A DNA stretch of 46,869 nucleotides, from positions 1 to 46,869 of the forward strand of contig JBHHYG010000001.1 in the NCBI GenBank assembly GCA_046757445.1, in the 5' to 3' direction. The notes under the pieces are model-generated. The model did not search any database, was not told the origin of the DNA, and worked only from the letters and a program-made list of their open reading frames with translations. Positions 255 through 17,249 of the stretch are shown here, piece by piece. How positions within the stretch are numbered: position 1 is the stretch's first letter; every line of letters begins with the position of its first letter. The DNA is from Acidobacteriota bacterium. GTDB taxonomy: Bacteria > Acidobacteriota > UBA890. The translations under genes were made by a program, and so were the position numbers.

Positions 255-438
255 CGTTTTCCTCCTCCTGTTGCTCTTCGGTCCATTCCTTGAGCAGGCG
301 GGATACCAATGTGCTCCGAGCCGCGTACTTGGGGCGATTGCGGACTGGGTCCCACAAGAGCAAGTCCACTTTCGCTACGAGCGAACTCGGTAGTGAGAGG
401 GTGATCTCCACAGGTGGGTCCGCGTGTTTCTCTGGCAT
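238..438 (-). CDS. Ribbon-helix-helix (CopG/Arc-like) DNA-binding protein with acidic C-terminus
   Basis: VEITLSLPSSLVAKVDLLL...RSTLVSRLLKEW fits a strand-helix-helix pattern. ATG at 438 has AGGA upstream and lies about 19 nt downstream of the predicted TSS. The ORF-track start at 453 is TTG. Confidence 0.5.
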   Translation of the reverse strand: MPEKHADPPVEITLSLPSSLVAKVDLLLWDPVRNRPKYAARSTLVSRLLKEWTEEQQEEENDERQN

Positions 439-463
439 GATGGTGTCCTGCAATGGTCATTGT

Positions 464-492
464 ATGATACCACGGGGTTTGGGAAATGTCAA
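464..492 (-). promoter_or_regulatory. Sigma70-like promoter (minus strand): TTGACA-17-TGgTATCAT
   Basis: The reverse complement reads TTGACAtttcccaaaccccgtggTATCAT. The -35 overlaps the stop codon of 489..860. The element shares the aaccccgtggta spacer with the promoters at 7256..7285 and 8890..8917. Confidence 0.55.
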
Positions 493-860
493 TACAAATC
501 TTTCAGCTTGCGTCGCGCCTTGAGCGCAGCGATGCGTCGGGCGAGAGCCTCGGTTTTCGCAAAGCCGTATGTCTCTATGCCGTCAGCTTCATTAACCGCC
601 CGCCAAATGCCCTTCTCTCTGTCATAAATACAGGCCAAGGTGATGTTCTCTCCCGGCAGTGCAGCGTCAAGACTGGTGGTGTAGAAAGGAAATCCGGTGG
701 CGACCTGCCCAGCACCGTCTCTATGATTGTAGAATAGCTGAATAGTCGATCCTATCTGCACTCGGTTAAAGACGAAGTTGTACCGCCAGCAGAACATGCG
801 GCCATCCAACTCCCGGCTCCCTTTCTCTGCCGCTTCAAGGCGTGCGGTCAAATCGTCCAT
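489..860 (-). CDS. Hypothetical early protein, 123 aa, paralog of the N-terminal module of 1264..1839
   Basis: Shares LEAAE[KR]GSRE[LF]D, YTTSLDAALPGENI and TEALARRIAALKARR with 1264..1839. The ATG directly abuts the upstream stop. Confidence 0.7.
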   Translation of the reverse strand: MDDLTARLEAAEKGSRELDGRMFCWRYNFVFNRVQIGSTIQLFYNHRDGAGQVATGFPFYTTSLDAALPGENITLACIYDREKGIWRAVNEADGIETYGFAKTEALARRIAALKARRKLKDLY

Positions 861-1247
861 CTACTTCTCCTCTCGATCGAAGTACGCTTGCAGGGCCTTT
901 TGTCCCCTACGCTTCGGAACGGGGGCGGACGCCTCTGCCTTGACCGGCGGCGCAGGGGGGGCCGTGACTTCGACTCCGGCGCGGCGGAGGTCAGGGAGGA
1001 AGTCGTCGTCTGCGGGCTTGGCGACGAGCGCGGCGGTCCCGTCGGGGAGCCGCTCGAGGCCAAGCTGTACTCCGTTTGCCACAGTAGCAAACGGATGGTC
1101 CTCGCGTCGAAGCTCCTTGCGTAGGTTGTTGAGGCGGAAGCGTAGGCGTGCGGCGCTGCGCGGATCGGGCAGCTGGATGCGGATCAGTTTCTGCGCGCCG
1201 GCCTTGAATAGCTCCAGCAGTTCGGGGGCGTAGCTACTTACGGGCAT
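861..1247 (-). CDS. Hypothetical early protein, 128 aa, N-terminal module similar to 46432..46740
   Basis: GGAGGAG SD upstream of the ATG at 1247. ELLELFKAGAQKLIRIQLPDPRSAARLRFRLNNLRKEL parallels EYAELFRRAWKGRVEIELASAGRARSLRDRLYAFRAAL. Confidence 0.7.
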   Translation of the reverse strand: MPVSSYAPELLELFKAGAQKLIRIQLPDPRSAARLRFRLNNLRKELRREDHPFATVANGVQLGLERLPDGTAALVAKPADDDFLPDLRRAGVEVTAPPAPPVKAEASAPVPKRRGQKALQAYFDREEK

Positions 1248-1263
1248 CGACGGTCTCCTCCGC

Positions 1264-1839
1264 TTAGGGTTTGTCCTTGAGCTTCCTGATGGCTTCGATC
1301 TTCTCGGCGTGGGAACAACTGAGGGCTATGACGCCTCCCGCTTCCATCAGCGCTTCGTTGCGCGCTTTGCGGATTACGGCAGCAATTTCTTGCTCGGCTA
1401 TCCTTCTCGAAAACTTTCCTGTTAGCCCTAGATGCCTCAAAGCAACAAGTGCCCATTCGTCTGCACTTTTCATACAGCTTCTCCTTTCCTTCATCTCGCG
1501 CCGCGCCTTGAGGGCGGCAATGCGTCGAGCGAGGGCTTCAGTGTGAGCGTTGCCAAATGTCTGCGCTTGCGTGTGTTTGTCAAGGTTCGTTGCAGCCCAG
1601 CCATGTTCACTCTTAGTAGTCGATACGATGTTTTCTCCCGGCAGCGCGGCGTCGAGGCTGGTGGTGTATTTAGGCGGATTACAGTGCAGAGTTCCGTCCG
1701 CCCACTTCCATAAAACATCCGATCCTTTAAGCTTTACTTGCTTAGCAACACCCAATAAGGCCGTGATTTTCTCGTCAAACTCCCGGCTTCCTCTCTCTGC
1801 CGCTTCAAGTTGCACGATCAAATCGTCGATCTCAGTCAT
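1264..1839 (-). CDS. Hypothetical early protein, 191 aa, apparent fusion of two modules
   Basis: Start chosen at ATG 1839 (MTEIDD...), 8 nt into the upstream gene; the track ORF extends to 1998. Residues 1-120 resemble 489..860. The C-terminal 69 aa (MKSADEWALVAL...) resemble the N-terminus of 1832..2044 and keep an in-frame AAGGAG+ATG at 1473. Confidence 0.6.
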   Translation of the reverse strand: MTEIDDLIVQLEAAERGSREFDEKITALLGVAKQVKLKGSDVLWKWADGTLHCNPPKYTTSLDAALPGENIVSTTKSEHGWAATNLDKHTQAQTFGNAHTEALARRIAALKARREMKERRSCMKSADEWALVALRHLGLTGKFSRRIAEQEIAAVIRKARNEALMEAGGVIALSCSHAEKIEAIRKLKDKP

Positions 1840-2044
1840 GGGCTTCTTCCCACGGCTGATATTCATGAGCGTAGGCTTTTGCATATTTGGGCACCCATTT
1901 AAGTTCTTCGCGGTGACACTTTCTGCATTCGCGCGTGGGTGTTTCAGAGATGCTAAGGTCATCCTGCCGAATAGGGCGCCGACTGTATTTCCAATCATGG
2001 ACGCAGTTTAAAGCTTCACGCGCCCATTCATCTGTGCTTCTCAT
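1832..2044 (-). CDS. Hypothetical small Cys/His-containing protein, 70 aa
   Basis: ATG at 2044. Contains C..H...C..C residues. The N-terminus MRSTDEWAREAL resembles an internal segment of 1264..1839. Confidence 0.5.
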   Translation of the reverse strand: MRSTDEWAREALNCVHDWKYSRRPIRQDDLSISETPTRECRKCHREELKWVPKYAKAYAHEYQPWEEAHD

Positions 2045-2372
2045 CTGTCTCCTCCTCGGCCTTGGCGATCATGGCTTTATAAGCCCTGCGACGAGCTCTG
2101 GTTGTTTCAAAGGACAGAAACGGACCATAGAGAAGCCCGAGCAATTCTCCGCTTGGCTCCCCCGGCACGATCACCAGCCCCGCCTTGTAGAGTGCTTGCT
2201 TGTGTGCGGCGATAGCGGCATTGGCCTTATCTAGCGCCTCTCCCCTCTGATTTGCATATGATCGGCGTAGGTGTGGTGGCACCGTATCTTGCGATCCCCA
2301 TTGAGCATAAGGATCAATTGCCCGCGCTACGACCTCTCGTATTTCGTCGTGTGGGTTAGTAGCGTCAGTCAT
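2028..2372 (-). CDS. Hypothetical early protein, 114 aa
   Basis: ATG at 2372, tightly packed in the operon. No recognised motif. Confidence 0.65.
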   Translation of the reverse strand: MTDATNPHDEIREVVARAIDPYAQWGSQDTVPPHLRRSYANQRGEALDKANAAIAAHKQALYKAGLVIVPGEPSGELLGLLYGPFLSFETTRARRRAYKAMIAKAEEETDEKHR

Positions 2373-2374
2373 TT

Positions 2375-2665
2375 TCAGCCCTCCTCTGGCTCCGGCGCGG
2401 CGGCGAGCGCCGCATCGACAATCTGAATAACTTGGATGCCAACAAGATTCGGACAGGTCTTAATCCCGGCCAGCACCATTTCTTGTGTCATAGCTATTGG
2501 CACCACCTTCCACCCCGCCGGCACCCGCTTGAGATCGGGGCGGGCGGCGAGGTACTCGTCGATGGCAACCTCGACCCTCCTCGGTGTGGAGAATGGAGGC
2601 TCGTCAGGGCAATCGAAGAACGCATCAATCGCCGCGCGGAGAGCCTTCTCGTGTGCGTCAGCCAT
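2375..2665 (-). CDS. Hypothetical early protein, 96 aa
   Basis: ATG at 2665 overlaps the upstream stop. No recognised motif. Confidence 0.65.
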   Translation of the reverse strand: MADAHEKALRAAIDAFFDCPDEPPFSTPRRVEVAIDEYLAARPDLKRVPAGWKVVPIAMTQEMVLAGIKTCPNLVGIQVIQIVDAALAAAPEPEEG

Positions 2666-2864
2666 GGCCCGTCTCCCCCGTAGGGCCTGGCACGGGGGGC
2701 AGATCCCTCCGCACGTATCCGACCGAGAGCTTTTGCTCTAGCCGGGCGAAGGCGGTGGCGAGGGTCTCGATCATGTAGTTAAGGTCTTCGCGCTTCTTGT
2801 CGCGGATAGAGGCCTCGCGCGCCAAGGCGACAACCTCGTGCGTTCGCAGTTCGAGAGGGGTCAT
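2658..2864 (-). CDS. Hypothetical early protein, 68 aa
   Basis: Start set at ATG 2864, which forms an ATGA overlap with the stop of 2861..3061. The track ORF begins further upstream. Confidence 0.5.
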   Translation of the reverse strand: MTPLELRTHEVVALAREASIRDKKREDLNYMIETLATAFARLEQKLSVGYVRRDLPPVPGPTGETGHG

Positions 2865-3061
2865 TTGGGGTCTCTCCCCAGTTGGTTCCGCATGGTGACT
2901 GCGAGTGTCTTCAATACCCAATCGCGCAGTCCCTCGAACTCGGAGTTGTGGTCGTCGCCCTCGTCGAGTTCAACGGAGGCTTCGAGGTCGAACTTGCGGC
3001 TTGAGTAGTTGCCCGTGTTGATGGTCGCTCCGTGAGCGAAGCGGATGGTTTTGATCTTCAT
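2861..3061 (-). CDS. Hypothetical early protein, 66 aa
   Basis: ATGA-type coupling at both ends. Confidence 0.55.
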   Translation of the reverse strand: MKIKTIRFAHGATINTGNYSSRKFDLEASVELDEGDDHNSEFEGLRDWVLKTLAVTMRNQLGRDPK

Positions 3062-3282
3062 ATTGACCTCCTGTAGCGTCGATACTCCTCGAAGTTGGTG
3101 CGGAGAAAGTCGGTGACTCGGTCCAGGTCATTACCGCTCCGCAGGAAGAACTGCACCTTGCTCGGCGGGGGGCCGGAGACGGCCACGATCTCGCCGACCG
3201 TCAAGACGAGGCCATTGGGGCTAGGTTCCGCCTCCATATAGATCTCGATGCCTTCGAAAATGCCTAGTGTGATCTCGTTCAT
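3058..3282 (-). CDS. Hypothetical early protein, 74 aa
   Basis: ATGA coupling to both neighbours. Confidence 0.6.
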   Translation of the reverse strand: MNEITLGIFEGIEIYMEAEPSPNGLVLTVGEIVAVSGPPPSKVQFFLRSGNDLDRVTDFLRTNFEEYRRYRRSI

Positions 3283-3464
3283 CTCCTTAGACTCCTGTCT
3301 GCCCAGCGCTCGGATGCGAGGTCGCGGGCAAATTCTTCGGCGTCAGCTTCGCTTGAGAAGGGGCCTGCACAGTAGGAGATCGTTTCGTTGTCCCACACGA
3401 AGACGCCACGCGGAGTCTGCTCGACCTCGAAATCTTCGAGGTAGGGGTTCTCGAAGGTGGTCAT
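3279..3464 (-). CDS. Hypothetical acidic early protein, 61 aa
   Basis: GAGGAG SD upstream of the ATG at 3464. Confidence 0.55.
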   Translation of the reverse strand: MTTFENPYLEDFEVEQTPRGVFVWDNETISYCAGPFSSEADAEEFARDLASERWADRSLRR

Positions 3465-3476
3465 GGATTGTGCTCC

Positions 3477-3782
3477 TCAGAAGGGTATCTCGTCGTAGCC
3501 GATCGCTTTGGGCTCGTGCTGCTTCTTCCAGCCCATGCGGCGAAGGTACTCTTCCACTACGGGGTCGGGGGCGGAACCAGTTACCTTTTTGTCGTCATAG
3601 CTGGAAGCGCCGAGGGTGTAAGCGATCTTCACGTCGCCCTCTTGTATTCTGCCCGAGCAGGCCACTCCGAAGTGGAACTCGGTGCCTTCGTCGGCGCCAC
3701 GAAGGGCCTCGCGGACCTTCTTCATCTGGCGCTTGACTGCGCCCTCGAAGGATACGATGGCGATAGTGTGCTCGTCGGTCAT
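3477..3782 (-). CDS. Hypothetical early protein, 101 aa, with SSB-like C-terminal tip ...GYDEIPF
   Basis: The last codons read gac gag ata ccc ttc tga (D-E-I-P-F-stop); compare the bacterial SSB tip DDDIPF. The body does not look like a canonical OB-fold SSB by eye. Confidence 0.65.
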   Translation of the reverse strand: MTDEHTIAIVSFEGAVKRQMKKVREALRGADEGTEFHFGVACSGRIQEGDVKIAYTLGASSYDDKKVTGSAPDPVVEEYLRRMGWKKQHEPKAIGYDEIPF

Positions 3783-3979
3783 GGTTTGTCTCCTGGTTCT
3801 GGAGTTGTGATCTTAGGCATCCCCGCTCCGTAAGGCCCCCAGGCGGTCACCTCCTGGAGGATTACACCTGCGTCGTTGAGGAAAGTAAGCGTGAGCCACT
3901 GACTGCCAGTCGCGCCAGTGCTTCGCTCCATTTTGACTTCAGCGACGTTGCTGATGTTGACTTCTACCTCGAGAGCCAT
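3779..3979 (-). CDS. Hypothetical early protein, 66 aa
   Basis: Start set at ATG 3979, with a GGAGG SD. The track ORF extends upstream into the preceding gene. Confidence 0.5.
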   Translation of the reverse strand: MALEVEVNISNVAEVKMERSTGATGSQWLTLTFLNDAGVILQEVTAWGPYGAGMPKITTPEPGDKP

Positions 3980-3980
3980 C

Positions 3981-4382
3981 TCAGACCTCCAAGTCCTTGA
4001 TCTCGACCTCAAGCGCCTTTGCCACTGTAGCGAAAGCTGCAGCTTTGTCGCTTCGGACGCTGACGATGAACAGCCGTCTGGGGTTGCCGAGGCGCTGGCC
4101 GGTGCGCCCGACAAGGGCCTCGCAGGACAGCGCCAGGGGCGCGGGCATGTTGCCCTTGGCGAGCCAGCCGTGGAAAGTAGTGACAGGGACTCTGAGTGCG
4201 GTGGCCAGCTCGACTTTGTTGAGCTTGAGCTTTGCCATCGTGTCCCTGAGGATTTGCGCCGGGGCGCGCTTGTAAGTGCGTTCTGTAGGGAGTTTAGTCA
4301 CGTTGTCCTCCTTTGGGGTACTAGATGCCTCCATGAGATCGTTGTAGATTGCCTTTGCTTCGGGTGTCATGTGCTGGTTCAT
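3981..4382 (-). CDS. Helix-turn-helix DNA-binding protein, 133 aa
   Basis: LNKVELATALRVPVTTFHGWLAKGNMP is a typical HTH segment. Confidence 0.55.
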   Translation of the reverse strand: MNQHMTPEAKAIYNDLMEASSTPKEDNVTKLPTERTYKRAPAQILRDTMAKLKLNKVELATALRVPVTTFHGWLAKGNMPAPLALSCEALVGRTGQRLGNPRRLFIVSVRSDKAAAFATVAKALEVEIKDLEV

Positions 4383-4384
4383 AG

Positions 4385-4633
4385 CTAGTCCTCCTTTGGG
4401 TTTCCATATATCGCCCCGCCCAGTTCGCTGAGGAACTCCGGGGGCTTGATTTCTTTGATTGCTTCGTCTAGCTTGCCCATGAGGAGCAGGGCGCCCCAGG
4501 GGCCAGTTTGCAGTATTCGACCCTTCACTTCCTCTTCGTGCGAGAGGATTGTCATTACGCCATCTTCAATGGCGATGAGGCCCTGCGCTTCGAGGGACTG
4601 AAGCTCCTCGGTTAGGCGGCGTAGCTTGCTCAT
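4385..4633 (-). CDS. Hypothetical early protein, 82 aa
   Basis: ATGA coupling. No recognised motif. Confidence 0.6.
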   Translation of the reverse strand: MSKLRRLTEELQSLEAQGLIAIEDGVMTILSHEEEVKGRILQTGPWGALLLMGKLDEAIKEIKPPEFLSELGGAIYGNPKED

Positions 4634-4989
4634 CGCACAGCCTCCTTCGTGGATTGGAGCACCACGACAATATTGTGGAAGCGTAAGCGCGCTTCGATCG
4701 CCCGTAGCTGTAGGGCCTTGACCTCGGCGAAGGTGCGCTCAGGGGCATCGTTCCATCTCGTCGCAGCGAGGTAGCTTGTAAATCCTGCGCTTTCGAGGAA
4801 GAATTTGTGGGTGGGACTTAACTCGCCGCCCCCCGCTTCGTCGTCGAGGGCCAGCATCACACACCGGGGGGCCTTCCCGTCGCCGTTAAAGCCTCCGCTC
4901 TGCCACCATTCAGCCTTGTTCGGAAGGCGACGCTCGGCACCGATGAGGTTGTCGAGTATAGGGTCGTTGAGATAGCTGTAGTCTTGCAT
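4630..4989 (-). CDS. Hypothetical protein, 119 aa (W-Q-x-G...C...WND...R-T-x-x-EV pattern)
   Basis: WWQSGGF...CVMLAL...TRWNDAPERTFAEVKAL resembles, from memory, a small conserved phage/actinobacterial family (possibly DUF6197). Not verified. Confidence 0.6.
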   Translation of the reverse strand: MQDYSYLNDPILDNLIGAERRLPNKAEWWQSGGFNGDGKAPRCVMLALDDEAGGGELSPTHKFFLESAGFTSYLAATRWNDAPERTFAEVKALQLRAIEARLRFHNIVVVLQSTKEAVR

Positions 4990-4994
4990 TGGAG

Positions 4995-5399
4995 TTACTC
5001 CTCTATGAAGCCGTCTGGATAGATAATGCGGACAGGCTTGCCTGTCTTGCGAGCGTAGCGGATCGTGGCCCAGGTGCCAGAGCGGAGTTGCTCTCTCCGT
5101 TCATAGGGACACGCGAGCAGCTCGTCGCACTCATCCACGATGGCACGGTTGCGCTCGAGGTAAGGGAGCGCGGGGAGAGTTTCGTCGCCCTTGCAGAAGG
5201 CTCGCTTGATCCGTTTTAGTGGGGGGTGGACGATGATCTTGAATTTGAAGCCTCTGCAGATGCCGTGGAACTCGGCATCTGCACCTATGCAGTCGCCGTG
5301 GTGGCACTCCTCCGGGGCGAGGCCGTGGACATACGCCCGCACCTTGCTCCATTGGAAGCTGTCGAGCCCGCGTTGGGTGCCTGTGAAACCGAGTTTCAT
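4995..5399 (-). CDS. SLOG/DprA-like Rossmann-fold protein (DUF2493-like), 134 aa
   Basis: Start at ATG 5399 (ATGA overlap). Motifs: GFTGTQRG...HGDCIGAD...RNRAIVDECDELLACP...SGTWATIRYA. Family assignment is tentative. Confidence 0.55.
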   Translation of the reverse strand: MKLGFTGTQRGLDSFQWSKVRAYVHGLAPEECHHGDCIGADAEFHGICRGFKFKIIVHPPLKRIKRAFCKGDETLPALPYLERNRAIVDECDELLACPYERREQLRSGTWATIRYARKTGKPVRIIYPDGFIEE

Positions 5400-5590
5400 T
5401 TGGTCATCTCCTGGTGGAAGGCCCTTGCGATATGTCCTGCTATCGACTCCCAAAACCTCCAGCTGAACTTCTGTTCGTCGTAGCCTCGCACTTCCACCTC
5501 AAAGGTTTTGTCGGGCAGCACCTTCCTGATCCGGTCAAGGTCGAAGCTGTCCGGCAATAGGACGGAGAACACTGTGAACTCCATGCCCAT
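5396..5590 (-). CDS. Hypothetical early protein, 64 aa
   Basis: ATG at 5590 in a TGATG junction. The track start at 5593 is GTG. Confidence 0.55.
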   Translation of the reverse strand: MGMEFTVFSVLLPDSFDLDRIRKVLPDKTFEVEVRGYDEQKFSWRFWESIAGHIARAFHQEMTK

Positions 5591-5660
5591 CACCGCGTCT
5601 CCGCGCTTCGCAGCTTGCGGCGCTGGCGCTCCAGGCGAGCAGTTTCCGGGCGTAGTTTGC

Positions 5661-5807
5661 TCATCGCTCTATCCTCAGCTTTACGGCTATGTGGCTTCCT
5701 TTGTCCTCTTCCTTCACGATCTTGGCAGGGTAGGTTCCCGGCTTTAGAGGACGTAGCCGCCAGAACCTCCTGACGATTTGGTAGACGATTGGCTTGTAGT
5801 TCTTCAT
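5661..5807 (-). CDS. Small basic ORF, 48 aa (not in the ORF track)
   Basis: My translation: MKNYKPIVYQIVRRFWRLRPLKPGTYPAKIVKEEDKGSHIAVKLRIER. GAGGAG SD 9 nt upstream. It fills an otherwise empty gap, and its stop forms an ATGA junction with a further 24-codon ORF (5590..5664). Confidence 0.35.
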   Translation of the reverse strand: MKNYKPIVYQIVRRFWRLRPLKPGTYPAKIVKEEDKGSHIAVKLRIER

Positions 5808-5872
5808 GGCCGGTGCTCCTCGAGGCTGCTCACGCGCTCTACCATCTTCGCGTGGCCGGCCTCGGCTTCGTC

Positions 5873-6121
5873 CTAGGTGGAGTAGCGTTCCCCTTCGCCG
5901 TCTAGCGAGCCGCCGAACACAAGCGTCTCGAACAGTATCGAGGGACCATCACCGAGCTGGTGATCCATTCCGAGGAATATCGTTGAGACTACGGCTTCGC
6001 CGATCTCGTCTCGAGCGACCCTGCAGGCACCTCGATTAGCTTCGAACCACTCAGCCCACTTTATCAGATCGGGCTCGAGGATGGACGTCCTGCCGTCGAG
6101 AATGTACTTGTCGGTGCTCAT
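5873..6121 (-). CDS. Hypothetical early protein, 82 aa
   Basis: ATG at 6121 in the junction GAATTTTGATG. The track start at 6124 is TTG. Contains VSTIFLGMDH...LFETLVFGG. Confidence 0.6.
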   Translation of the reverse strand: MSTDKYILDGRTSILEPDLIKWAEWFEANRGACRVARDEIGEAVVSTIFLGMDHQLGDGPSILFETLVFGGSLDGEGERYST

Positions 6122-6597
6122 CAAAATTCACTCAATGGGGTGAAGATGGGGGCGATCTTGGCCATTTTGCGCTCCGCTATCGGTGGCGGTTTGGGCTTGG
6201 GGAACAGTTCGCCCTGTCCGTTGGGCAGGTATTTGCGGAAGCATCGCTCGCACGCGCTTGCGCGGGTGTCGATGTGGACGATCTCGTGCGGGATGTCGTA
6301 GGGGAGGATTGTTTCGGGCGCGAGCTTGTCCATTCGCATCTGGCGGAAGCGCGTGAAGGTGCGTTTGCGGCGCCGGGTCATGAGGGCGGGGTTGGGGACG
6401 CTGTGCGTGCGTCCGCACTTGCACCTTCTCCGCTCTACTAGGAGTACTATGGCTTCGAGTTCCCAGGCCTCCTCGTCCGGGGCCTCTGCGCGTGTGCGCG
6501 TGTCGGCGCTAGGGGGGTTTGGCATGGTGCTCTCCAGGAGTTGGATGATTGAAGGTTCCTCCCGGAGTTTTCCGTTTGTCTGCTGTGAGGTATTCAT
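6121..6597 (-). CDS. Zinc-ribbon-like early protein, 158 aa, ending PLSEF
   Basis: Start at ATG 6597 (ATGA overlap). Contains CKCG...(about 60 aa)...CERC. The C-terminus ...TPLSEF matches the tail of 12..254. Confidence 0.6.
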   Translation of the reverse strand: MNTSQQTNGKLREEPSIIQLLESTMPNPPSADTRTRAEAPDEEAWELEAIVLLVERRRCKCGRTHSVPNPALMTRRRKRTFTRFRQMRMDKLAPETILPYDIPHEIVHIDTRASACERCFRKYLPNGQGELFPKPKPPPIAERKMAKIAPIFTPLSEF

Positions 6598-6788
6598 GAC
6601 CGTATTCCGATCCAGACTGCGTGCATCCCCTTGACGAAGGCGGCGCACTCGTCGAGGGTTGTAGGGCCGTGCAGAAGAGGGCTGGGCGCGCCAGTCTGGC
6701 GGTTCATTACCAGCCAGCCGGCAAGTTCGCCCTCGACGAAAGCGGGCTCGATTGATATGTCAGTTGTAGGGTCGATCAGGTCTGTCAT
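6594..6788 (-). CDS. Hypothetical early protein, 64 aa
   Basis: ATG at 6788 in a TGATG junction. Confidence 0.55.
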   Translation of the reverse strand: MTDLIDPTTDISIEPAFVEGELAGWLVMNRQTGAPSPLLHGPTTLDECAAFVKGMHAVWIGIRS

Positions 6789-6976
6789 CACTCAGTCTCC
6801 ACGGTAACAGTGAGGGCCTGCGGGACGACGTCGGCGCCGAGGGCCTTCTTGCGAATGTACAGCGTTCCGATCACTACGGCATCAAAGTCCTTGACGATCC
6901 CGTCCTCGTCGATTTCGGCGTAGCGGATGGCGCCTTTGGTCTCGCGGTCAATTACGAATTTTGCCGTAAGGGTCAT
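6788..6976 (-). CDS. Hypothetical early protein, 62 aa
   Basis: Start at ATG 6976 (MTLTAKF...), with a GGAGG SD. The track ORF extends upstream over the neighbouring gene. Confidence 0.55.
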   Translation of the reverse strand: MTLTAKFVIDRETKGAIRYAEIDEDGIVKDFDAVVIGTLYIRKKALGADVVPQALTVTVETE

Positions 6977-6978
6977 TG

Positions 6979-7200
6979 CTAAAACCTCCATGTTGGGTGT
7001 GCGCTTTTGCGCAGCATCCGGTTTTTTGCTCGTTGCCACCCGGAGGTGACGCCTGCTAGGGAAATCCACACGCCGAACTGCTCGTGGATGGCGCGGCGGC
7101 ATTTAGTTTTGGCCGCCGTCGAGAGGCGGGTGGGCGCGCCTCGGCAAATGAAATATGCCTCAGCTACCGCCCTTTCCTGATCGAATAGAGTAGGGGTCAT
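6979..7200 (-). CDS. First ORF of the main early operon, 73 aa, hypothetical
   Basis: ATG at 7200, about 49 nt downstream of the predicted TSS, with GGAG upstream. Confidence 0.5.
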   Translation of the reverse strand: MTPTLFDQERAVAEAYFICRGAPTRLSTAAKTKCRRAIHEQFGVWISLAGVTSGWQRAKNRMLRKSAHPTWRF

Positions 7201-7255
7201 TGTTTGTGCTCCGTGGTTGGTGCTCGATCATGGTTTCATTGCCATTGTACGCGGG

Positions 7256-7285
7256 ATTGTACCACGGGGTTTGCCGATTTGTCAA
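7256..7285 (-). promoter_or_regulatory. Sigma70-like early promoter: TTGACA-18-TGgTACAAT
   Basis: The reverse complement reads TTGACAaatcggcaaaccccgtggTACAAT. It lies directly upstream of the leftward early operon. Confidence 0.55.
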
Positions 7286-7348
7286 CATAAATCGTCAAGC
7301 AAATCGAATTAGTTTCGTTCGTGCTCGGGTGGGCGGCGGGGGTTCAGT

Positions 7349-7369
7349 TCTATACCAGCTGGTTGACCG
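7349..7369 (-). promoter_or_regulatory. Promoter-like repeat element A (GGTCAACCagctggTATAGA on the minus strand)
   Basis: Shares GTCAACC-N6-TATAG with elements at 7504..7523, 17213..17231 and 38776..38806. The -35 position (GCAACA) is weak. Confidence 0.3.
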
Positions 7370-7503
7370 TATGTTGCCTGTTGTTTTTGCACGCGATCGC
7401 GCCGGGGCGGTCGGGGTGCGGGGTGGAGAAGCTCGCGCGCGTGGACCCCGTGAAATCGCCGGGGCGGGCGTATGGGTGTTGGGAGGGGGATCCGGGGTGT
7501 GCG

Positions 7504-7523
7504 CTATACCCGCTGGTTGACCG
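7504..7523 (-). promoter_or_regulatory. Promoter-like repeat element B (GGTCAACCagcgggTATAG on the minus strand)
   Basis: ctatacccgctggttgaccg compared with ctataccagctggttgaccg at 7350 shows 19 of 20 identity. The flanks (tatg..gcctg..ttg) are also related. Confidence 0.3.
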
Positions 7524-7613
7524 GGAGTATGCCTGAAGCTCATCTGATTTTGCCTGGTTGCGCTGTTTGTACGGGGGGTGGCCCGCCAAATGCCCTATTC
7601 CAGGGGGTATGGT

Positions 7614-7663
7614 CTTTTAAGTATAAAATATATGATGATATATTAACTGAAGATAAAAATGTC
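7614..7663. other. AT-rich island (about 50 bp, roughly 80% A+T) in a GC-rich genome; candidate DNA unwinding element or UP-like element
   Basis: cttttaagtataaaatatatgatgatatattaactgaagataaaaatgtca. It is flanked by G-runs and repeats, and no ORF covers it. Confidence 0.3.
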
Positions 7664-7837
7664 ACACTTCCGCCGGGGACGGGCCGGGGGACGTACAACC
7701 AGGGCTACCAGGCAATATCAGGTGAGTATCAGGGGGTCCGGCGGTCAACCACGGGGTTGACAAATCATCAACCAAGGGGAATTGTCGCGAGGGTGCACCT
7801 TCGGCCGCGTCTGAGGTTAGGTTTGCGCCGCGAGCAC

Positions 7838-7863
7838 AAAAAAAAAAGCCCCCTTGCGGGGGC
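7838..7863 (-). terminator. Rho-independent terminator of the 8737..7871 two-gene operon
   Basis: The minus strand reads GCCCCC-gcaa-GGGGGC followed by T10 (plus strand: a10-gcccccttgcgggggc). It lies 8 nt after the stop of 7871..8044. Confidence 0.85.
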
Positions 7864-7870
7864 TGAGGTC

Positions 7871-8044
7871 TCAGTAGTCGTTTTTCGCCATGAAGTCGAT
7901 CCATTTGAACTGGACGAACTCCTCGTTAGGCTGATGTGTTGCTCCCTCGGGACGGGACTTGGCCTTTTTCCATTCTTCACGGTCTGGGAAAACGGCCATC
8001 GCTCGCCCGCCGTCTTTGGTATCGTGGATAACAGCGTAATACAT
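7871..8044 (-). CDS. Small ORF, 57 aa (not in the ORF track), hypothetical
   Basis: My translation: MYYAVIHDTKDGGRAMAVFPDREEWKKAKSRPEGATHQPNEEFVQFKWIDFMAKNDY. GAGGTGG SD upstream, and the terminator follows immediately. Confidence 0.55.
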   Translation of the reverse strand: MYYAVIHDTKDGGRAMAVFPDREEWKKAKSRPEGATHQPNEEFVQFKWIDFMAKNDY

Positions 8045-8107
8045 GATCCACCTCGCTAGGTGAAGGGATGGAGGGGGGCAATCGTGCCCCCTCCAAGTTT
8101 CGTCGGA

Positions 8108-8737
8108 TTAGAAGCCTGTGAGGGCCGCGCCTTCACCTTCGGCCTTTTCCGCCGCCGCGTCGGCACGCTCCTGCGCCTTTTCGGCTTTGATGGCTTCGTA
8201 CTCGGCGTTGACCGCCGGATTGGCAAGCGCGTTCGCGCGGAGCTTTTTCTGCTCCTCCTTATCGTCGGATGTGATCTTGGCCTTGATCGCCGCCCGGCGC
8301 TCGTCGTCCACGGCCTCGCCCGCGCGTTCGAGCGCCCGCGCGATAGCCTCGACAACCATTGTCGGGGTCGGACCGACGCCTTCCTTGCGCTCGGACCACT
8401 CGCCCGCCGCGAGCAATTCCGCGCCATTGTCATACATCTCGACTGCAAGCGCGGCGTTGCCTTTGGATCCCGCGTACCAGTTTCCGCGCTTCTCGGAGCG
8501 CCCAAACCAGTCTTGGCAAAGCTCCATATCCTTCGGATCCGAGCCAAGAGTGTATCTGCGAACGGTCTTGATCGCCCCGTCAGGCCCGTCGTGGAAACGA
8601 AACTCTAACGCGATCGCGTCAGGCCTCGCGGTCCGAGACTCGCCATCGGGCGTAATATAGACCTTCGTGCAGACAGTACTTCGCTTTTTGGTCTCGGTTT
8701 CGGGCGTTGCGCCCGTAGGCTCTGTGGCTTTCGCCAT
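8108..8737 (-). CDS. Hypothetical early protein, 209 aa, with a highly charged helical C-terminal third
   Basis: GGAG SD upstream. It has its own promoter and a long structured leader. The C-terminal segment DDERRAAIKAKITSDDKEEQKKLRANAL...AEKAQERADAAAEKAE is charged. Confidence 0.75.
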   Translation of the reverse strand: MAKATEPTGATPETETKKRSTVCTKVYITPDGESRTARPDAIALEFRFHDGPDGAIKTVRRYTLGSDPKDMELCQDWFGRSEKRGNWYAGSKGNAALAVEMYDNGAELLAAGEWSERKEGVGPTPTMVVEAIARALERAGEAVDDERRAAIKAKITSDDKEEQKKLRANALANPAVNAEYEAIKAEKAQERADAAAEKAEGEGAALTGF

Positions 8738-9220: not shown

Positions 9221-9406
9221 TTGGCAGAAGAAGCAAAGCTAGGCACCCGCACCCTGCAGGACGTTCAGTTCGATAGAGCTTCGCGCTGGCTCCGCAACCA
9301 CACGCGCCGACACCTCCCGCCGCCTCGCCACATTAACGAGAAAATCAACGCCCAACGCACTTTCCTCGCCGCCGAAATCCGCAACTTCAACGCGAGGCCG
9401 ATCTGA
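9221..9406 (+). CDS. Possible small ORF, 61 aa, TTG start
   Basis: Its stop overlaps the ATG of 9406 (TGATG). Non-ATG start and no recognisable motif. Confidence 0.2.
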   Translation: MAEEAKLGTRTLQDVQFDRASRWLRNHTRRHLPPPRHINEKINAQRTFLAAEIRNFNARPI

Positions 9407-9915
9407 TGGCCGAGCACCAGATCACGGAGAAGGGATTGAGCTACCGCCACGAGTACATCGTCGACTGGTGCCTCAAACACCCCGAGGGCCTGATGAAGGA
9501 CCTGGCTGCGGAGTTGGGGGTGAGTGAGCAGCATCTGTCCCTGGTGCGGAACTCTGATGCCTTCAAGGACTACGAAGCGCGGCGCCGCGCCGAGCACAAC
9601 GAGACCCTCTCCAAGTCGATTGTCGAAGAAGTCGAGGATCTCGCCCATCTCTCCGTCGAGGTTCTCAACGAGCGCATCGAGTCCGAGCGGCAGACCCTGG
9701 GACTGACGCTTGTCCGCGAGACCGCCGATATGGCTCTCAAGGCCCTCGGCTTCGGAAGTCGGCGCGGCGACGACAATCGTTCCATCAACACTCTCGTCAT
9801 TAATGGCGCAGATCCCGCGCTCCTTGAGCGCGCCCGCGCAAGGATGCGTGCCGCCAACTCGGTCCCGGAGGAACCCGAGGATGTTGAGGCCCCGACCGTG
9901 CCCACCCCCGGCTAG
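9406..9915 (+). CDS. terS: Putative terminase small subunit (HTH-containing), 169 aa
   Basis: First gene of the late arm, upstream of terL. N-terminal HTH-like segment LMKDLAAELGVSEQHLSLVRN. The call rests on position and size only. Confidence 0.4.
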   Translation: MAEHQITEKGLSYRHEYIVDWCLKHPEGLMKDLAAELGVSEQHLSLVRNSDAFKDYEARRRAEHNETLSKSIVEEVEDLAHLSVEVLNERIESERQTLGLTLVRETADMALKALGFGSRRGDDNRSINTLVINGADPALLERARARMRAANSVPEEPEDVEAPTVPTPG

Positions 9916-10399
9916 TTTCCGGCCCGCAGGCACCGTCTCCCGGGCGGAGTACTCAAAGCTACCGCCCTCATTCGCAAAGAACACCTGGAGAAAAGGGGCG
10001 AGAGGTCGTGGTCTGGCATACGAGAAGAAGTGCCAAAAGCGCCTCCTGGCGCACTATCCCGACCAGTATATTCCTGCGCCGTGGTTCCGTTTCTGGACGG
10101 CGCACGACGGTCCTCTTTGGTGTCAGCCCGATGGGCTCATTCTCGATATCCGCGGCGGGAGGGTCACTATTGTCGAGATCAAGTTGCGGCACACGAGCGA
10201 CGCCTGGTGGCAGATTCGCAAGCTCTACGAGCCCGTTCTTCGCAGCGTCTTTGGGCCGGATTGGGATTATCCCGTTCTTGAAGTCGTCATGTGGTTCGAT
10301 CCTGACACGCCTTTCCCAGAGATCCTCTGCTTTGCGCGCCATCCGCACGAAGTACCGGCCCAAGCCTTCGGCGTTCATATCTGGAACGGGAGGCAGTAG
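9881..10399 (+). CDS. PD-(D/E)xK-family nuclease-like protein
   Basis: WCQPDGLILDIRGGRVTIVEIKLRH fits D...E-x-K. Start is uncertain: ATG 9881 has a GGAGG upstream, while the track ORF opens at 9710. Confidence 0.5.
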   Translation: MLRPRPCPPPASFRPAGTVSRAEYSKLPPSFAKNTWRKGARGRGLAYEKKCQKRLLAHYPDQYIPAPWFRFWTAHDGPLWCQPDGLILDIRGGRVTIVEIKLRHTSDAWWQIRKLYEPVLRSVFGPDWDYPVLEVVMWFDPDTPFPEILCFARHPHEVPAQAFGVHIWNGRQ

Positions 10400-10626
10400 T
10401 GCCTAAGAAGAAGAGTATCATCGGAGCTATCGTGGGAGCGAGATCCCCCGAGCACCGTCAACTCCTATCCCCCCAACGTCGGTTCGAGCGCGGACTCATT
10501 AGCGCAGAGACGCGTGACCGTCTCATAAGGGAGCGCAAGGAGAAAACTCGTCGCATAAATGAGCGGAATGCGATCAGGCGGGAGAACGAGCGCGTCCTCC
10601 GCACAGGCATGGCTCGGGAAGAGTAG
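10399..10626 (+). CDS. Small basic protein, 75 aa, GTG start
   Basis: The GTG overlaps the upstream TAG. Arg/Lys-rich helical sequence. Confidence 0.4.
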   Translation: MPKKKSIIGAIVGARSPEHRQLLSPQRRFERGLISAETRDRLIRERKEKTRRINERNAIRRENERVLRTGMAREE

Positions 10627-12132
10627 ATGGCTGAACCCTCAATCGCGCAGCCTACCCTAGAGGAGCTTGTCGAGCTTTGCGCCGTCGATAGCGAACTCTT
10701 CTGCCGCACTTACTTCCCCCGTACCGTGCGCCAGCCGAGCCCGGCGTTCCACGATAGGGTCTGGGCGCTCTTGGAGTCCGAGGATCGGCTCATCAATATC
10801 AGGGTCTTCCGTGGCGGGGCGAAGACCTCGATCCTCCGCATGTACACCGCCAAGCGCATCGCCTACGGTCTCGCGCACACGATCCTCTATGTTGGCAAGA
10901 GTGAAGGCCACGCTATCCGCAGCGTAAAGTGGATCCGTCGCCAGGTGCAATATAATCGCGCCTTCGCACAGACGTTCAGCCTCCGGCCTGGGAAGAAGTG
11001 GCAGGACGTTGAGGCCGAAATCTGGCACGGCGCAGATGAATATCCGGTCTGGATAATGGGAACGGGGATTACTGGATCTGTGCGTGGGATCAATCAGGAC
11101 GACTTCCGGCCTGATCTCATCGTCGTTGACGATGTTATCGACGAGGAGAACTCTGCTACCGCCGAGCAGCGGGAGAAAATCGCCAACCTCCTCTACGGTG
11201 CGCTCAAAGAGTCCCTCTCTCCGGCGACGGAAACCCCCGATGCGAAGATGGTCCTCCTTCAAACCCCGCTCAATAAGGAAGACGCGTCCACCTTGGCTGT
11301 GAACGATCCCGAGTGGAAGTCCGCGACCTTCGGCTGTTGGACGCCAGCATCCGCGGACTTGCCAATCTCGCAACAGGAGAGCACCTGGCCCGAGCGGTGG
11401 CCCAGCAAGGTGCTCCGTGCGGAGAAGGACGCGGCGATCCAGCGCAATCGACTATCGCTTTGGCTCCGAGAGAAGGAGTGCAAGCTGGTCTCTCCGGAGA
11501 CTTCTGCCTTCCGCGAGGATTGGCTGCAATACTACGACCTCGAACCGGAGAATATGGTAGTCCACATGGCTGTCGATCCCGTGCCGCCGCCGAGCGACAT
11601 ACAAGTCGCTAAGGGCCTTCGCGGTAAGGACTTCGAGGCCTTCGCCATCGTCGGCTCACACGCGGGTGAGTATTATCTGCTCGACTACACGCTCCATCGT
11701 GGGCACGAGCCGAATTGGACCGTGATGGAATTTTTCCGCCTCGCGGCGAAGTGGAAGCCGAGGAGGATTCTTGTGGAATCTACCGCCTACCAGCGCACAC
11801 TCTCGTGGCTGCTGAAGCAGGCGATGGACCACCAGCGGCGCTACTATGTGATCGAGGAGTTTGATGATAGGCGCAAGAAATTTGACCGGATTGTTGACGG
11901 ACTGTCCGGGATTGCTTCCAACAGTAAGCTTTTCGTGCGGCGCGGCCAGACGGAGTTCGTCTCCCAGTTCCGCGCGTATCCTGATGTCGCTCACGATGAT
12001 CTCATCGAAGCGGTCGCCGTCGCTGCGGCGTCGCTCGCGGGCTCCGGCTACGACGACGAGGACGGTTACGCGGAGATCTTAGCCGCCGAGGAGAACATTC
12101 CTTCGCTCCAATACTTGCGGGGGTCGCCATGA
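10627..12132 (+). CDS. terL: Terminase large subunit
   Basis: 501 aa. Motifs: RGGAKTS (Walker A-like), DLIVVDDVIDEE (Walker B), and C-terminal nuclease acidic residues (MAVDP..., HDDLIEA). Lies immediately upstream of the portal gene. Confidence 0.9.
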   Translation: MAEPSIAQPTLEELVELCAVDSELFCRTYFPRTVRQPSPAFHDRVWALLESEDRLINIRVFRGGAKTSILRMYTAKRIAYGLAHTILYVGKSEGHAIRSVKWIRRQVQYNRAFAQTFSLRPGKKWQDVEAEIWHGADEYPVWIMGTGITGSVRGINQDDFRPDLIVVDDVIDEENSATAEQREKIANLLYGALKESLSPATETPDAKMVLLQTPLNKEDASTLAVNDPEWKSATFGCWTPASADLPISQQESTWPERWPSKVLRAEKDAAIQRNRLSLWLREKECKLVSPETSAFREDWLQYYDLEPENMVVHMAVDPVPPPSDIQVAKGLRGKDFEAFAIVGSHAGEYYLLDYTLHRGHEPNWTVMEFFRLAAKWKPRRILVESTAYQRTLSWLLKQAMDHQRRYYVIEEFDDRRKKFDRIVDGLSGIASNSKLFVRRGQTEFVSQFRAYPDVAHDDLIEAVAVAAASLAGSGYDDEDGYAEILAAEENIPSLQYLRGSP

Positions 12133-12371
12133 CTAGGATCGCGCGTCTTCCGGGCGTCAGGCTTTCTCCCAAAGTCCTCCTTGCTCGAGTGCTGGAGAAC
12201 GCGGACGATCTCGAGTCGGTTGTGATTATAGAGACCCCCAAGAAGGGCGTCGTGGCAGCCTGCTGGTCCGCGCAGGAACTGCGGGATACAGCCTACGCGA
12301 TCCAGGTGCTCCGGCGCCAGTTCGATCGGGCGCTCGGAGATGAGGATTCCACTGTGGAGTCTGTTGGTTGA
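12129..12371 (+). CDS. Hypothetical protein, 80 aa
   Basis: ATGA and TGATG coupling between terL and the portal gene. Confidence 0.55.
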   Translation: MTRIARLPGVRLSPKVLLARVLENADDLESVVIIETPKKGVVAACWSAQELRDTAYAIQVLRRQFDRALGDEDSTVESVG

Positions 12372-14305
12372 TGCCCGGTCTGACCCTCGACATCAAGTTC
12401 AAGTCGCAGCTGCACCAGCTGATTATTGATGCTGTGCGCGACCGTGTACAGTTCTCGAAGCGAAAGAACGAGTCCCGCCGCAACAAGTGGATCAAGAGTG
12501 AAGAGGCAGCTCTCGCTTTCTTGCCCGAAACCGCAGTCGATGCGAAACGTAGGGGCCTCCGCGACACGGGCAAGCCCCAATACACCACCATCCAAATCCC
12601 GTACAGCTACGCCGTTCTCATGGCTTCGCACACTTACTGGACGACCGTCTTTATGTCCCGGACGCCGGTGCTTCAATTTGCAGGCCGTCATGGAGAGTCC
12701 GAGCAGCAAGTCCAGGCGATGGAGGCTCTTATCGACTACCAGGTGCAGGTGGGACGGATGCTTGTGCCGTTCTACATTTGGCTGCTCGACGGAGGGAAGT
12801 ATGGCGTCGGCGTCGTCGGCACCTACTGGGAGAAGCGCGAGTCTACAATCGCGGAGATCGTAGAGGAGGAGGAGCTTCTTCTCGGTGCGATCCCCACCGG
12901 GAGGATGAAGAAGCGCAAGGTGACTAACAGAGTCCCTGGCTATGTGGGCAACCGGCTCTACAATGTTCGCCCCTTCGACTTCCACCCCGACCCGAGAGTG
13001 CCTCTCTGGCGCTTCCAGGACGGCGAGTTCTGCGCCGTTTACAACGAACTCGGTTGGAACGAGATGCTCCGCCGACGCGACCAGGGGATGTATATTGCGG
13101 ATACCCTCAAACTTCTCAAGCCGGGCCAGCGGGGCACGGTCGGGGAGCGCGAGGCGGGCAGTGCACAACTGGAGCTTCCCGACACGGATGAGTTCTTCAC
13201 CTCTAATACGAGGGACAAGAAAGCCTCCGATATTGTCAAGATTTATGAGTGCTACATCGAACTCATCCCGAAGAATTGGAACTTGGGCCGCGGTAGTTCC
13301 CCCGAGAAGTGGGTGTTCACGGTTACTTCAGACTTCACCTTTGTTCTTGGTGCGCAGCCCCTTGGTGCCTGGCACGACTCCTTCCCATTTCACGTTATTG
13401 AGTTTGAGCCCGAAGGCTACTCGATCGTCAATCGGGGAATACCCGAAGTCCTTGATCCGATCCAGAGGACGCTGGACTGGCTGATCAACAGTCACCTGTA
13501 TAATGTGCGGAAGGCTGTGAATGATCAGTTTGTCGTCGATCCCTCGAAGATCGTGATGAAGGACTTCCAGGACCCCCTTCCCGGCGGCGCGATCCGGCTG
13601 AAGCCGAGTGCTTATGGCACCGACGTTCGGACCGTGCTGACACAGCTGAATGTGGTGGACATTACGCAGAACCACATGCGCGACCTTCAGGCCATCCTCG
13701 AGCTCGGTCAGCGCACATTGGGGGTGAGCGACCAGATCCTGGGACTTCTAGGCGCTAAGGGTGGGCGCAAGACTGCCACTGAGGTCCGCAGCTCCACCGC
13801 CTTCGGTATCAACCGTCTCAAGACCGTGGCGGAATACTTCAGTGCGATGGGTTGGACGCCAATGTCCACGATGCTGGTACAGAACTCGCAGCAGTACTTC
13901 GACACCGATCGGAAGTTCAGAGTCGTCGGCGACCTCGCCCTGGAGGCGGGGCAATCCTTCGTCAACGTCACGCCGGGCGATATTCAGGGCTTCTTCGACT
14001 TTGTGCCTGTGGATGGTACGCTGCCCATTGACCGTTTCGCACAAGCGAACTTGTGGCGTGAGCTGCTCGCCCAGATGGCGAAAACTCCCGAAGTCCTCGC
14101 GCAGTATGATCTTGGCCGTATTTTTGCCTGGGTGGCGCAGATCGCGGGGTTGAAGAACATTAATCAATTCAAGATCCAAGTACAACCCGATGCTCTACTC
14201 GCCCAACAGGCGCAGCGGGGGAATGTGGTGCCTGGGCCGGGCGCGCAGCGCGATCTGACTCGTGTGCCGGAGCCGGGCCAAATTAGCGGACTGGGGACGA
14301 CATAA
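12371..14305 (+). CDS. Portal protein
   Basis: 644 aa. Lies directly after terL and before the scaffold and capsid genes. ATG at 12371; the track start at 12368 is TTG. Confidence 0.8.
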   Translation: MPGLTLDIKFKSQLHQLIIDAVRDRVQFSKRKNESRRNKWIKSEEAALAFLPETAVDAKRRGLRDTGKPQYTTIQIPYSYAVLMASHTYWTTVFMSRTPVLQFAGRHGESEQQVQAMEALIDYQVQVGRMLVPFYIWLLDGGKYGVGVVGTYWEKRESTIAEIVEEEELLLGAIPTGRMKKRKVTNRVPGYVGNRLYNVRPFDFHPDPRVPLWRFQDGEFCAVYNELGWNEMLRRRDQGMYIADTLKLLKPGQRGTVGEREAGSAQLELPDTDEFFTSNTRDKKASDIVKIYECYIELIPKNWNLGRGSSPEKWVFTVTSDFTFVLGAQPLGAWHDSFPFHVIEFEPEGYSIVNRGIPEVLDPIQRTLDWLINSHLYNVRKAVNDQFVVDPSKIVMKDFQDPLPGGAIRLKPSAYGTDVRTVLTQLNVVDITQNHMRDLQAILELGQRTLGVSDQILGLLGAKGGRKTATEVRSSTAFGINRLKTVAEYFSAMGWTPMSTMLVQNSQQYFDTDRKFRVVGDLALEAGQSFVNVTPGDIQGFFDFVPVDGTLPIDRFAQANLWRELLAQMAKTPEVLAQYDLGRIFAWVAQIAGLKNINQFKIQVQPDALLAQQAQRGNVVPGPGAQRDLTRVPEPGQISGLGTT

Positions 14306-14610
14306 TGGATGAGCGCCTTTCTCTTGCGATCCGCACCAAGAACATCCTCTCCGCCTTCGAGCGCACGGAGGCTTGGGAGTTCCTCAAGGCGACTATTGAG
14401 GCGAACATCCAAAATAAGATCAACGCGGTCGTAGATACTCCCTTGGCGAATATGTCCGAAGCCGGAGCCCAGGAGTATGTAAAGGGCGAGATTTCTGCCT
14501 TCAAGTGGTTGCTCAATCTTCCTGCATCTCAACTAGAAGATGCTCAGAGTGTAATCGACGCTTGCAAGGAGCAGGAAGATGGCACGAAAGCCGAAAGCGC
14601 CGCCGACTGA
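14305..14610 (+). CDS. Hypothetical head-module protein, 101 aa
   Basis: TAATG coupling to the portal gene. Confidence 0.55.
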   Translation: MDERLSLAIRTKNILSAFERTEAWEFLKATIEANIQNKINAVVDTPLANMSEAGAQEYVKGEISAFKWLLNLPASQLEDAQSVIDACKEQEDGTKAESAAD

Positions 14611-15568: not shown

Positions 15569-15587
15569 GCTAAGGAGGTAGCCAATC

Positions 15588-16814: not shown

Positions 16815-16835
16815 GCGCCGGGAAAGGAGGAAGTT

Positions 16836-17180: not shown

Positions 17181-17192
17181 GTAGGCGGTCTG

Positions 17193-17231: not shown

Positions 17232-17249
17232 CGTCCAAGGAGATGAACG

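Follow-up and report, generated by a model that had tools for sequence, protein, structure and literature searches.

The stretch of 46,869 nucleotides analysed here (contig JBHHYG010000001.1, referred to as the window) is a complete, circularly assembled podophage genome of about 46.8 kb, and the subject of what follows is a gene-free region within it at 7201-7870, at the core of which (7504-7761) lies an imperfect palindrome of about 250 bp, referred to as the element. The two ends of the window share an exact direct overlap of 55 nt (1-55 and 46815-46869), which leaves a unit of 46,814 bp, and so the assembly is circular and the physical ends of the genome are not given by the window. The major capsid protein and the portal are of the SU10 type, TerL is of the T7 RNaseH-like type, and a Sak4-like protein and a PD-(D/E)XK exonuclease are encoded as well. 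Minus-strand genes form the blocks 37194..46457 and 12..8737 and plus-strand genes the block 9221..36725, the gene-free region being set within minus-strand genes. All 670 bp of the region had been taken as free of genes in the original prediction, which was made from the letters alone, and the gene calls on an independent assembly likewise include none within these 670 bp.

The region is bounded on its right by the terminator of a short operon, which consists of a 209-aa gene (8108-8737) and a 57-aa gene (7871-8044), and on its left by a near-consensus sigma-70 early promoter. The intrinsic terminator (7838..7864, minus strand) has a stem at 7864-7847 of seven pairs, six of them G-C, then a run of nine T, and matching terminators are seen at the same place in the related loci L019, L021, L022, L025 and L026 (such handles are kept below only where loci have to be told apart). 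The early promoter, P_E (7256..7285, minus strand), had been found in the original prediction and is indeed there, as TTGACA-18-TACAAT with 11 of 12 consensus matches plus an extended TG; it is directed away from the element, into a 73-aa gene (6979-7200) and the early genes beyond. Near-consensus promoters in the same position, with TTGACA followed after 17-18 nt by TATACT, TACATT or TATTAT, occur in L019, L021 and L022 and also in L025, and the promoter of L016 has a weak −35 only, together with an extended −10. A DNA search of the region against the INPHARED phage collection gave no match, nor did searches of the flanking small proteins against Pfam, PHROGs and NCBIfam, and the tRNA and tmRNA scans found none.

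Anatomy of the palindrome

The core is organised by an inverted repeat in which a 66-nt left arm (7508..7573) is complementary at 76%, and without gaps, to a 66-nt right arm (7692..7757), with an AT-rich island enclosed between them. When inverted repeats were scored genome-wide, this one reached 68, the runner-up 33 and shuffled sequences 19 +/- 2.9. The arms carry iterons of 7 nt with the consensus WAYCAGG, and the polarity of these is opposite on the two arms: the left arm has reverse iterons at 7543 (TCTGATT) and 7553 (CCTGGTT) together with degenerate copies and ends on its inner side in GTACG (7569-7573), and the right arm begins at its inner end with CGTAC and continues into four forward iterons, AACCAGG at 7697, TACCAGG at 7706 and TATCAGG at both 7716 and 7727, spaced by 9, 10 and 11 nt. 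Seven WAYCAGG-type 7-mers fall within 260 nt, where the genome averages 0.44, and form the densest such cluster in the genome. Four of the five genome copies of CTGGTTG/CAACCAG, and all three of GGTCAACC/GGTTGACC, are likewise in this region.

Outside the iterons the arms end in two boxes. The outer left box (7504..7523), CTATACCCGCTGGTTGACCG, is the second copy of a 20-nt repeat and pairs with 7742-7751, and the outer right box (7742..7761), CGGTCAACCACGGGGTTGAC, pairs through its left half with the outer left box and includes the sequence ACCACGGGGTT; L004 has, as their counterpart, CCCCATGGTTGACCG and CGGTCAACCATGGGG, which pair perfectly over 15 nt. At the centre the AT-rich island (7605..7669) is A-rich on the plus strand, holds a small palindrome (AATATAT-gatg-ATATATT), and is the sole stretch in 46.9 kb with at least 77.5% A+T per 40 nt; it is proposed to be the DNA-unwinding element. 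Beside it, on the inner side of the right arm, is a G-rich segment (7673..7693) made of the direct repeat CCGGGGACG / CCGGGGGACG, to which two copies of GGCCG(T)GGGGGG in L009 are similar.

To the left of the palindrome is a longer G-rich flank (7286..7503), which contains an outer-box copy at 7350-7369, repeats of CGCCGGGGCGG at 7400-7413 and 7457-7470, and a formal G-quadruplex motif on the plus strand at 7461-7497 with four runs of three or more G and loops of 1-7 nt, the folding of which is a motif-based prediction. It is one of only two such motifs on the plus strand and three in the genome, the genome-wide maximum of G-run density is at this region, and G-rich flanks occupy the same place in L009, L004 and L021. 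The 20-nt repeats at 7350-7369 and 7504-7523 each end a 43-nt repeat, the two having 72% identity and a spacing of 154 nt. Their pattern is found in two exact copies and in a third with three mismatches at 17211-17229, where 0.02 are expected in the genome. The third site, CCGTCAACCGGGGGGTATA on the plus strand, is a box of the form GTCAACC-N6-GGTATA and is intergenic, standing before a late gene (17250-17738) and in the same direction. The box ACCACGGGGTT for its part is present in the outer right arm (7748-7758) and again in the spacer of P_E (7261-7271).

Six features had been listed separately in the original prediction: the promoter, the near-identical repeats of about 20 bp at 7350 and 7504, the direct repeats with their G-tracts, the second set of direct repeats at 7673..7693, the AT-rich island (drawn here with slightly wider limits), and an inverted repeat, GTCAACC-ACGG-GGTTGAC, at 7744-7761. 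All six are present, and three of the noted properties (the 20-nt repeat, the AT-rich island and the G-run density) go beyond chance; what had escaped notice is that most of these parts belong to one 66/66-nt inverted repeat, such that the repeat at 7504 and the left half of GTCAACC-ACGG-GGTTGAC are simply the paired outer ends of its arms, and the direct repeats at 7673..7693 make up the inner part on the right.

Place and design in related phages

Relatives were reached by way of the 209-aa homologue, which gave L009, and by way of the exonuclease and TerL, which gave nine further loci, and to these was added the cultured Microcystis phage Mel-JY34. Homologues of the exonuclease number more than 300 in public metagenomes and define a clade of phages of 43-49 kb. 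The first homologue of the 209-aa protein (58% identity) is on a metagenome contig of 45.8 kb, L009, and upstream of it there is sequence homologous to window positions 7533-7760. The element is conserved in L009, L004, L003, L019, L021, L022, L025, L026, L027 and Mel-JY34, and in each of these ten related loci the AT-rich island is the only one of the locus, lies within a gene-free gap of 390-915 bp placed immediately behind the early operon's start, and adjoins a member of the protein family of about 200 aa. Inverted arms flank the island in the nine loci where sequence was read on both sides, and within the gap examined L027 has the AT-rich island together with a weak 34-nt match only.

Iteron polarity is strict in the window and eight relatives, with reverse copies on the island's left and forward copies on its right. 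TATCAGG-type iterons are used in L009, L004, L003, L021, L025 and L026, and L025 carries six per arm at a spacing of 10-11 nt. In L022 the right arm (4520-4570, on the minus strand of that locus) is built from four exact tandem 11-nt units, ATGCAGGCGCT, and the left arm from four imperfect inverted copies with the same period. The arms of L019 are made from units of TATAGGC / ACCAGGCAT, and those of Mel-JY34 form a plain inverted repeat unrelated in sequence to that of the window. Most close relatives have GTACGG and CCGTAC at the inner arm ends, and further recurring features are an A-tract on the plus strand and segments to either side of the island, C-rich on the left and G-rich on the right. 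Right-arm patterns were also scanned for exactly: in metagenomes the scan returned the L009 phage again and nothing else, in GTDB genomes it returned none, and three matches in IMG/VR were set aside as chance occurrences in coding DNA.

In L004 and L009 the gene of about 200 aa belongs to the late strand and is downstream of the element, and a second promoter diverges from the element's other edge, whereas in the window, L019, L022, L025, L026 and L027 that gene is inverted, the orientation of the element staying constant. In L025 the box GAATTCCCGGGGGTT is found at both arm ends, in the inner right part beside the AT-rich island and in the early-promoter spacer, and in L009 a related box, CGCTGGTTGACC, is just upstream of the late promoter. 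The sharing of ACCACGGGGTT in the window, and of GAATTCCCGGGGGTT in L025, suggests a second DNA-binding protein that may couple promoter and element.

A probable origin, its candidate proteins and the rival explanations

The genome's strongest inverted repeat, the polar iterons, the sole AT-rich island and the conserved place and design together make an origin the best-supported reading, and with moderate confidence the core at 7504-7761 can be taken as a podophage replication origin of the helicase-loading type. In this the anatomy and the comparison with relatives bear out one half of the original prediction, that of a candidate ori; the other half, an early control hub, may yet apply in view of the ACCACGGGGTT copy in the promoter spacer. 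From the letters and their conservation we infer not only origin function but also which protein might bind and how melting might proceed. A phage protein would bind the WAYCAGG iterons one helical turn apart, the most economical binder being an MCM-like DUF3987 helicase acting through a C-terminal winged-helix domain, or else a partner protein. The opposite polarity of the iterons would then set two assemblies head-to-head around the AT-rich island, which would melt to allow the loading of two helicase rings, and bidirectional replication by the family-A polymerase would follow. P_E, firing away from the element, may aid opening through the negative supercoiling left behind it, and the G-rich left flank and the box ACCNCGGGGTT, at the outer arm ends and in the promoter spacer, would be accessory parts.

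An initiator gene had been said not to be recognisable, and that no longer holds, since a DUF3987 protein is encoded at 37194..38399 on the minus strand (401 aa, superfamily 6 (SF6), MCM-like, Walker A GPPGIATKST) and is the candidate for an initiator loaded at the element. A global survey describes the DUF3987 family as SF6/MCM-like replicative helicases with a winged helix-turn-helix at the C-terminus (PMC4889955), and a PriCT-DUF3987 protein has been demonstrated to be a helicase (PMC11724360). A comparison of five relatives gives 30-56% identity for the last 70 residues and 62-74% for the core, and such a fast-diverging C-terminus fits the pattern expected of a specificity domain. Sequence and profile searches of the helicase against PDB gave no match.

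A second candidate, as binder or as replication factor, is the 209-aa protein (8108..8737, minus strand), on account of its constant adjacency and conserved aromatic C-terminus. It is conserved, is an orphan in its fold and always adjoins the element, and its homologues are at L009:576-1169, L019:303-884, L022:3809-4372, L004:7664-8266, L025:3063-3641, L026:397-954 and L027:2484-3137. A profile search collects 99 family members with invariant G79, K83 and G85 and tails that end aromatic (..GF, ..DF or ..PF). Its structural model is confident, at a predicted local distance difference test (pLDDT) of 90.3; its fold is without a match in PDB, the best E being 0.33, and has one unnamed match only in BFVD; a PDB profile search and an IMG/VR search for related loci were also without a match. 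The tail had brought to mind a single-stranded DNA-binding protein like T7 gp2.5, an assignment that was left as unproven, the confident model having no fold match. Many of the contigs that carry the gene of about 200 aa are only 0.7-2.5 kb long.

Several observations weigh against an origin served by this helicase. The divergence of the DUF3987 C-terminus shows no correlation with iteron type, as L021 and L026 share WAYCAGG iterons with the window and yet have a C-terminus only 30% identical to the window's, and L019, with different iterons, has one that is 49% identical. The predicted secondary structure of the C-terminus, H-H-H-beta-beta, and the literature are what a putative winged helix in this helicase rests on, the single-sequence model being unusable at pLDDT 36. 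On the circular map about 16 kb separate the helicase gene from the element, the constant neighbour of which is the 209-aa gene. GC skew has no switch at the element and a cumulative minimum near 2600; it is held to be uninformative because it is dominated by gene orientation and by the local G-rich flank. The ends of certain Pseudomonas phage records, taken up below with the packaging of DNA, belong on the same side.

Whether the palindrome might act as RNA, as a long hairpin of a structured non-coding transcript from one strand, can be asked of the arms themselves. The arm-to-arm alignment of 11 elements gives 722 matches, 172 transversions and 102 transitions, so that about 63% of the mismatches are transversions, near the two-thirds expected at random, and pairing as such is not protected. 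Folding does beat shuffles (z = −5.2 on the minus strand and −5.8 on the plus strand), arm complementarity is retained in Mel-JY34 despite its different sequence, and the transitions lean to G-U on the plus strand (74 vs 28); however the better folding is a result of the inverted repeat itself and the G-U lean of a plus strand rich in G+T. Added to this, the arms are direct repeats at 10-11 nt, up to the four exact tandem units of L022, Rfam 15 returned no match at gathering thresholds and only sub-threshold chance matches at E <= 10, no promoter into the hairpin was found, and a terminator stands upstream on the gene strand, all of which leaves an RNA role exceedingly improbable. The mismatch spectrum, the periodicity and the tandem exact units instead indicate arrays of predicted protein-binding sites on duplex DNA. 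Very improbable too is the proposal made in the original prediction that the 20-nt repeats are extra tandem early promoters after the T7 A1-A3 arrangement. The repeat is over-represented, and its third site (17211-17229) is intergenic and has the direction of the late genes, but GTCAAC and TATAG are only 7 nt apart, unfit for sigma-70, the approximately 20 proteins scanned include neither a phage RNA polymerase nor a sigma factor, the related box of L009 faces the opposite way relative to the genes, and the copy that reads GGTCAACC...TATAG is the outer end of a palindrome arm, paired with 7742-7751. Tandem promoters reading into an AT-rich region, as in T7, are not what is found, the single sigma-70 promoter reading away. 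A control or maintenance site other than an origin, be it an operator array for early transcription or a centromere-like site for episomal (pseudolysogenic) carriage, has somewhat more in its favour and is quite doubtful all the same. In phage P1, parS has a bend with heptamer boxes to either side, and the boxes shared with promoters would suit such a site: ACCACGGGGTT in the outer right arm and the P_E spacer, GAATTCCCGGGGGTT in L025 at the arm ends, the inner right part and the promoter spacer, and CGCTGGTTGACC upstream of the L009 late promoter. The distant relative Shea moreover persists as an episome (PMC13348215). Yet up to twelve iterons and a unique AT-rich island far exceed the needs of an operator, the iteron arrays are 260-470 bp from the promoter, and neither a ParA-type ATPase nor a repressor was found, the ParB_N domain being part of a fusion with a DNA methylase.

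More serious, though on the unlikely side, is that the element marks a genome end, either as a pac or cos site or as the boundary of a direct terminal repeat collapsed by assembly, with TerS on the iterons and TerL cutting within the AT-rich centre or next to it. The window was assembled as a circle with ends that overlap by 55 nt, so that its physical ends are not fixed, and phages with a T7 RNaseH-like TerL usually have defined ends. The element also stands 1.5 kb upstream of a gene that is putatively terS (9406-9915), and immediately upstream of the early promoter, the expected place of the first-injected end in such podophages. What is more, the GenBank records of PaMx41, 119X and PaP2, three independently deposited and distantly related Jamesmcgillvirus phages with a helicase about 26% identical to that of the window, start and end, give or take a few nucleotides, in the middle of the AT-rich stretch of an analogous element, in which inverted arrays, of GGTCAAGGTA on one side and of ACCTTGAC / TACCT copies on the other, surround an AT-rich centre (PaMx41 at L028:1-300 and L029:3290-3491, 119X at L032/L033, PaP2 at L034/L035). 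The records of PaMx41 and 119X start and end within one nucleotide of each other in the palindrome CTTAT|ATAAG, and that of PaP2 does so at the same aligned position with different terminal sequences; were these ends physical, the element or its centre would be the place of terminase cutting. They may on the other hand be conventions copied between depositors, and the arrays of the element are mirror images, as in helicase-loading origins, whereas known terminase sites are asymmetric. In lambda cosB is on one side, and in SPP1 pacL and pacR carry different boxes. For Shea, 98.6% identical to PaP2, only 'terminally redundant ends' are reported (PMC13348215). The related Caulobacter phage Kuura has a terminal repeat of 606 bp at the early/late junction (PMC9959647), but this repeat is without the design of iterons and AT-rich island. 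Three assemblies of the L009 phage also break inside the region, in G-rich tandem repeats between the early promoter and the core element; these come from closely related samples and are not independent, an ENA scaffold and a GenBank contig possibly being of the same sample. The breaks of several assemblies of this phage (L009:1, L015:6875, L010:1, L011:1 and L016:1) are within about 140 nt, in GGGCGGATCGG x2 repeats. A telomere-resolution site like that of N15, brought up by the central palindrome of the Pseudomonas phages, was dropped, as no protelomerase-like gene was seen among the proteins scanned, which are a part of the open reading frames.

The origin and genome-end readings are compatible with each other, and a palindrome that served both as helicase-loading origin and as an end-forming site cut in its AT-rich centre is conceivable, if rather unlikely. 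Were it so, a module of about 500 bp would organise the start of replication, end formation and first-injected early transcription across a large and almost uncultured podophage clade, and the same module might permit a plasmid-like carrier state such as has been reported from a distant relative. The clade has almost no cultured members, and neither origin nor terminus has been described for it. A sole AT-rich island between mirror-image iterons, behind the early promoter, is a landmark that makes for a testable origin or terminus and a natural point at which to linearise assemblies, and the iteron arrays are a defined DNA substrate for finding what the DUF3987 helicase or the 209-aa protein binds. 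With the same design present in the culturable PaMx41, 119X and PaP2, direct experiments are possible. The general understanding of origins is unchanged by the finding.

Other features of the genome can be added. The stretch 8738-9405 is a divergent control region, in which the 209-aa gene has a minus-strand promoter at 8917-8890 and the late genes have one on the plus strand at 9144-9173; at the late promoter CCCCATTAGTT(C/T)CTTGACAT is kept in L019. The family-A DNA polymerase (39949-41694, minus strand, with a putative second part in the gene downstream) carries a uracil-DNA-glycosylase-like domain at its N-terminus. In relatives two genes encode it (for example L016:14494-17094), and in L025 one, as a protein of 870 aa. 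An N6/N4 DNA methyltransferase that carries a fused ParB N-terminal domain (42304-43587, minus strand) is conserved clade-wide, with no ParA partner seen.

Comparison with known systems

The sites at which terminases act offer some likeness, as lambda cos, SPP1 pac and terminal repeats of the T7 type combine short repeated boxes with bent A-tract DNA near terminase genes, but these known sites are asymmetric and are not mirror-image arrays of one motif. Among origins, lambda ori has iterons beside an AT-rich region, and phage P4 has octamer iterons, both direct and inverted, in its ori and crr, to which a primase-helicase binds through its C-terminal domain; P4 however requires ori and crr as two separate sites, in contrast to the single, non-coding and symmetric site here. 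Inverted initiator or helicase sites that flank an A+T-rich centre between transcription units are known from herpes simplex virus 1 (HSV-1) oriS and oriL and from the core origin of simian virus 40 (SV40), and in L004 and L009 the element likewise sits between divergent promoters, although the proteins and hosts are unrelated and those origins are shorter, at 45-144 bp, with fewer sites.

Closest would seem to be the origin of the staphylococcal pathogenicity islands (SaPI), in which oppositely directed iterons, 6-12 in number, surround an AT-rich centre and are recognised by a self-loading MCM-like helicase of the SF6 type with a winged-helix C-terminal domain (PMC9371898). The winged-helix domain binds the iterons, and one hexamer is proposed to be loaded on each side (PMC9371898). 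The likeness is that the podophage element has 4+4 to 6+6 iterons of 7 nt around a sole AT-rich island, in a genome that encodes a DUF3987/SF6 helicase. The differences are several: rep has the SaPI ori directly downstream of it, but the podophage element has its helicase gene far away and the 209-aa gene constantly adjacent; its arms are collinear and, at 66-130 nt, longer, making the whole element an imperfect palindrome of 250-300 bp; a G-rich flank and a second type of box are added; and binding by the helicase, established for SaPI, has here the standing of a candidate, with a C-terminal domain that does not co-vary with the iterons. Read as an origin, the element is thus of a known kind, iterons with an AT-rich centre in an origin of the helicase-loading type, here new and clade-wide.

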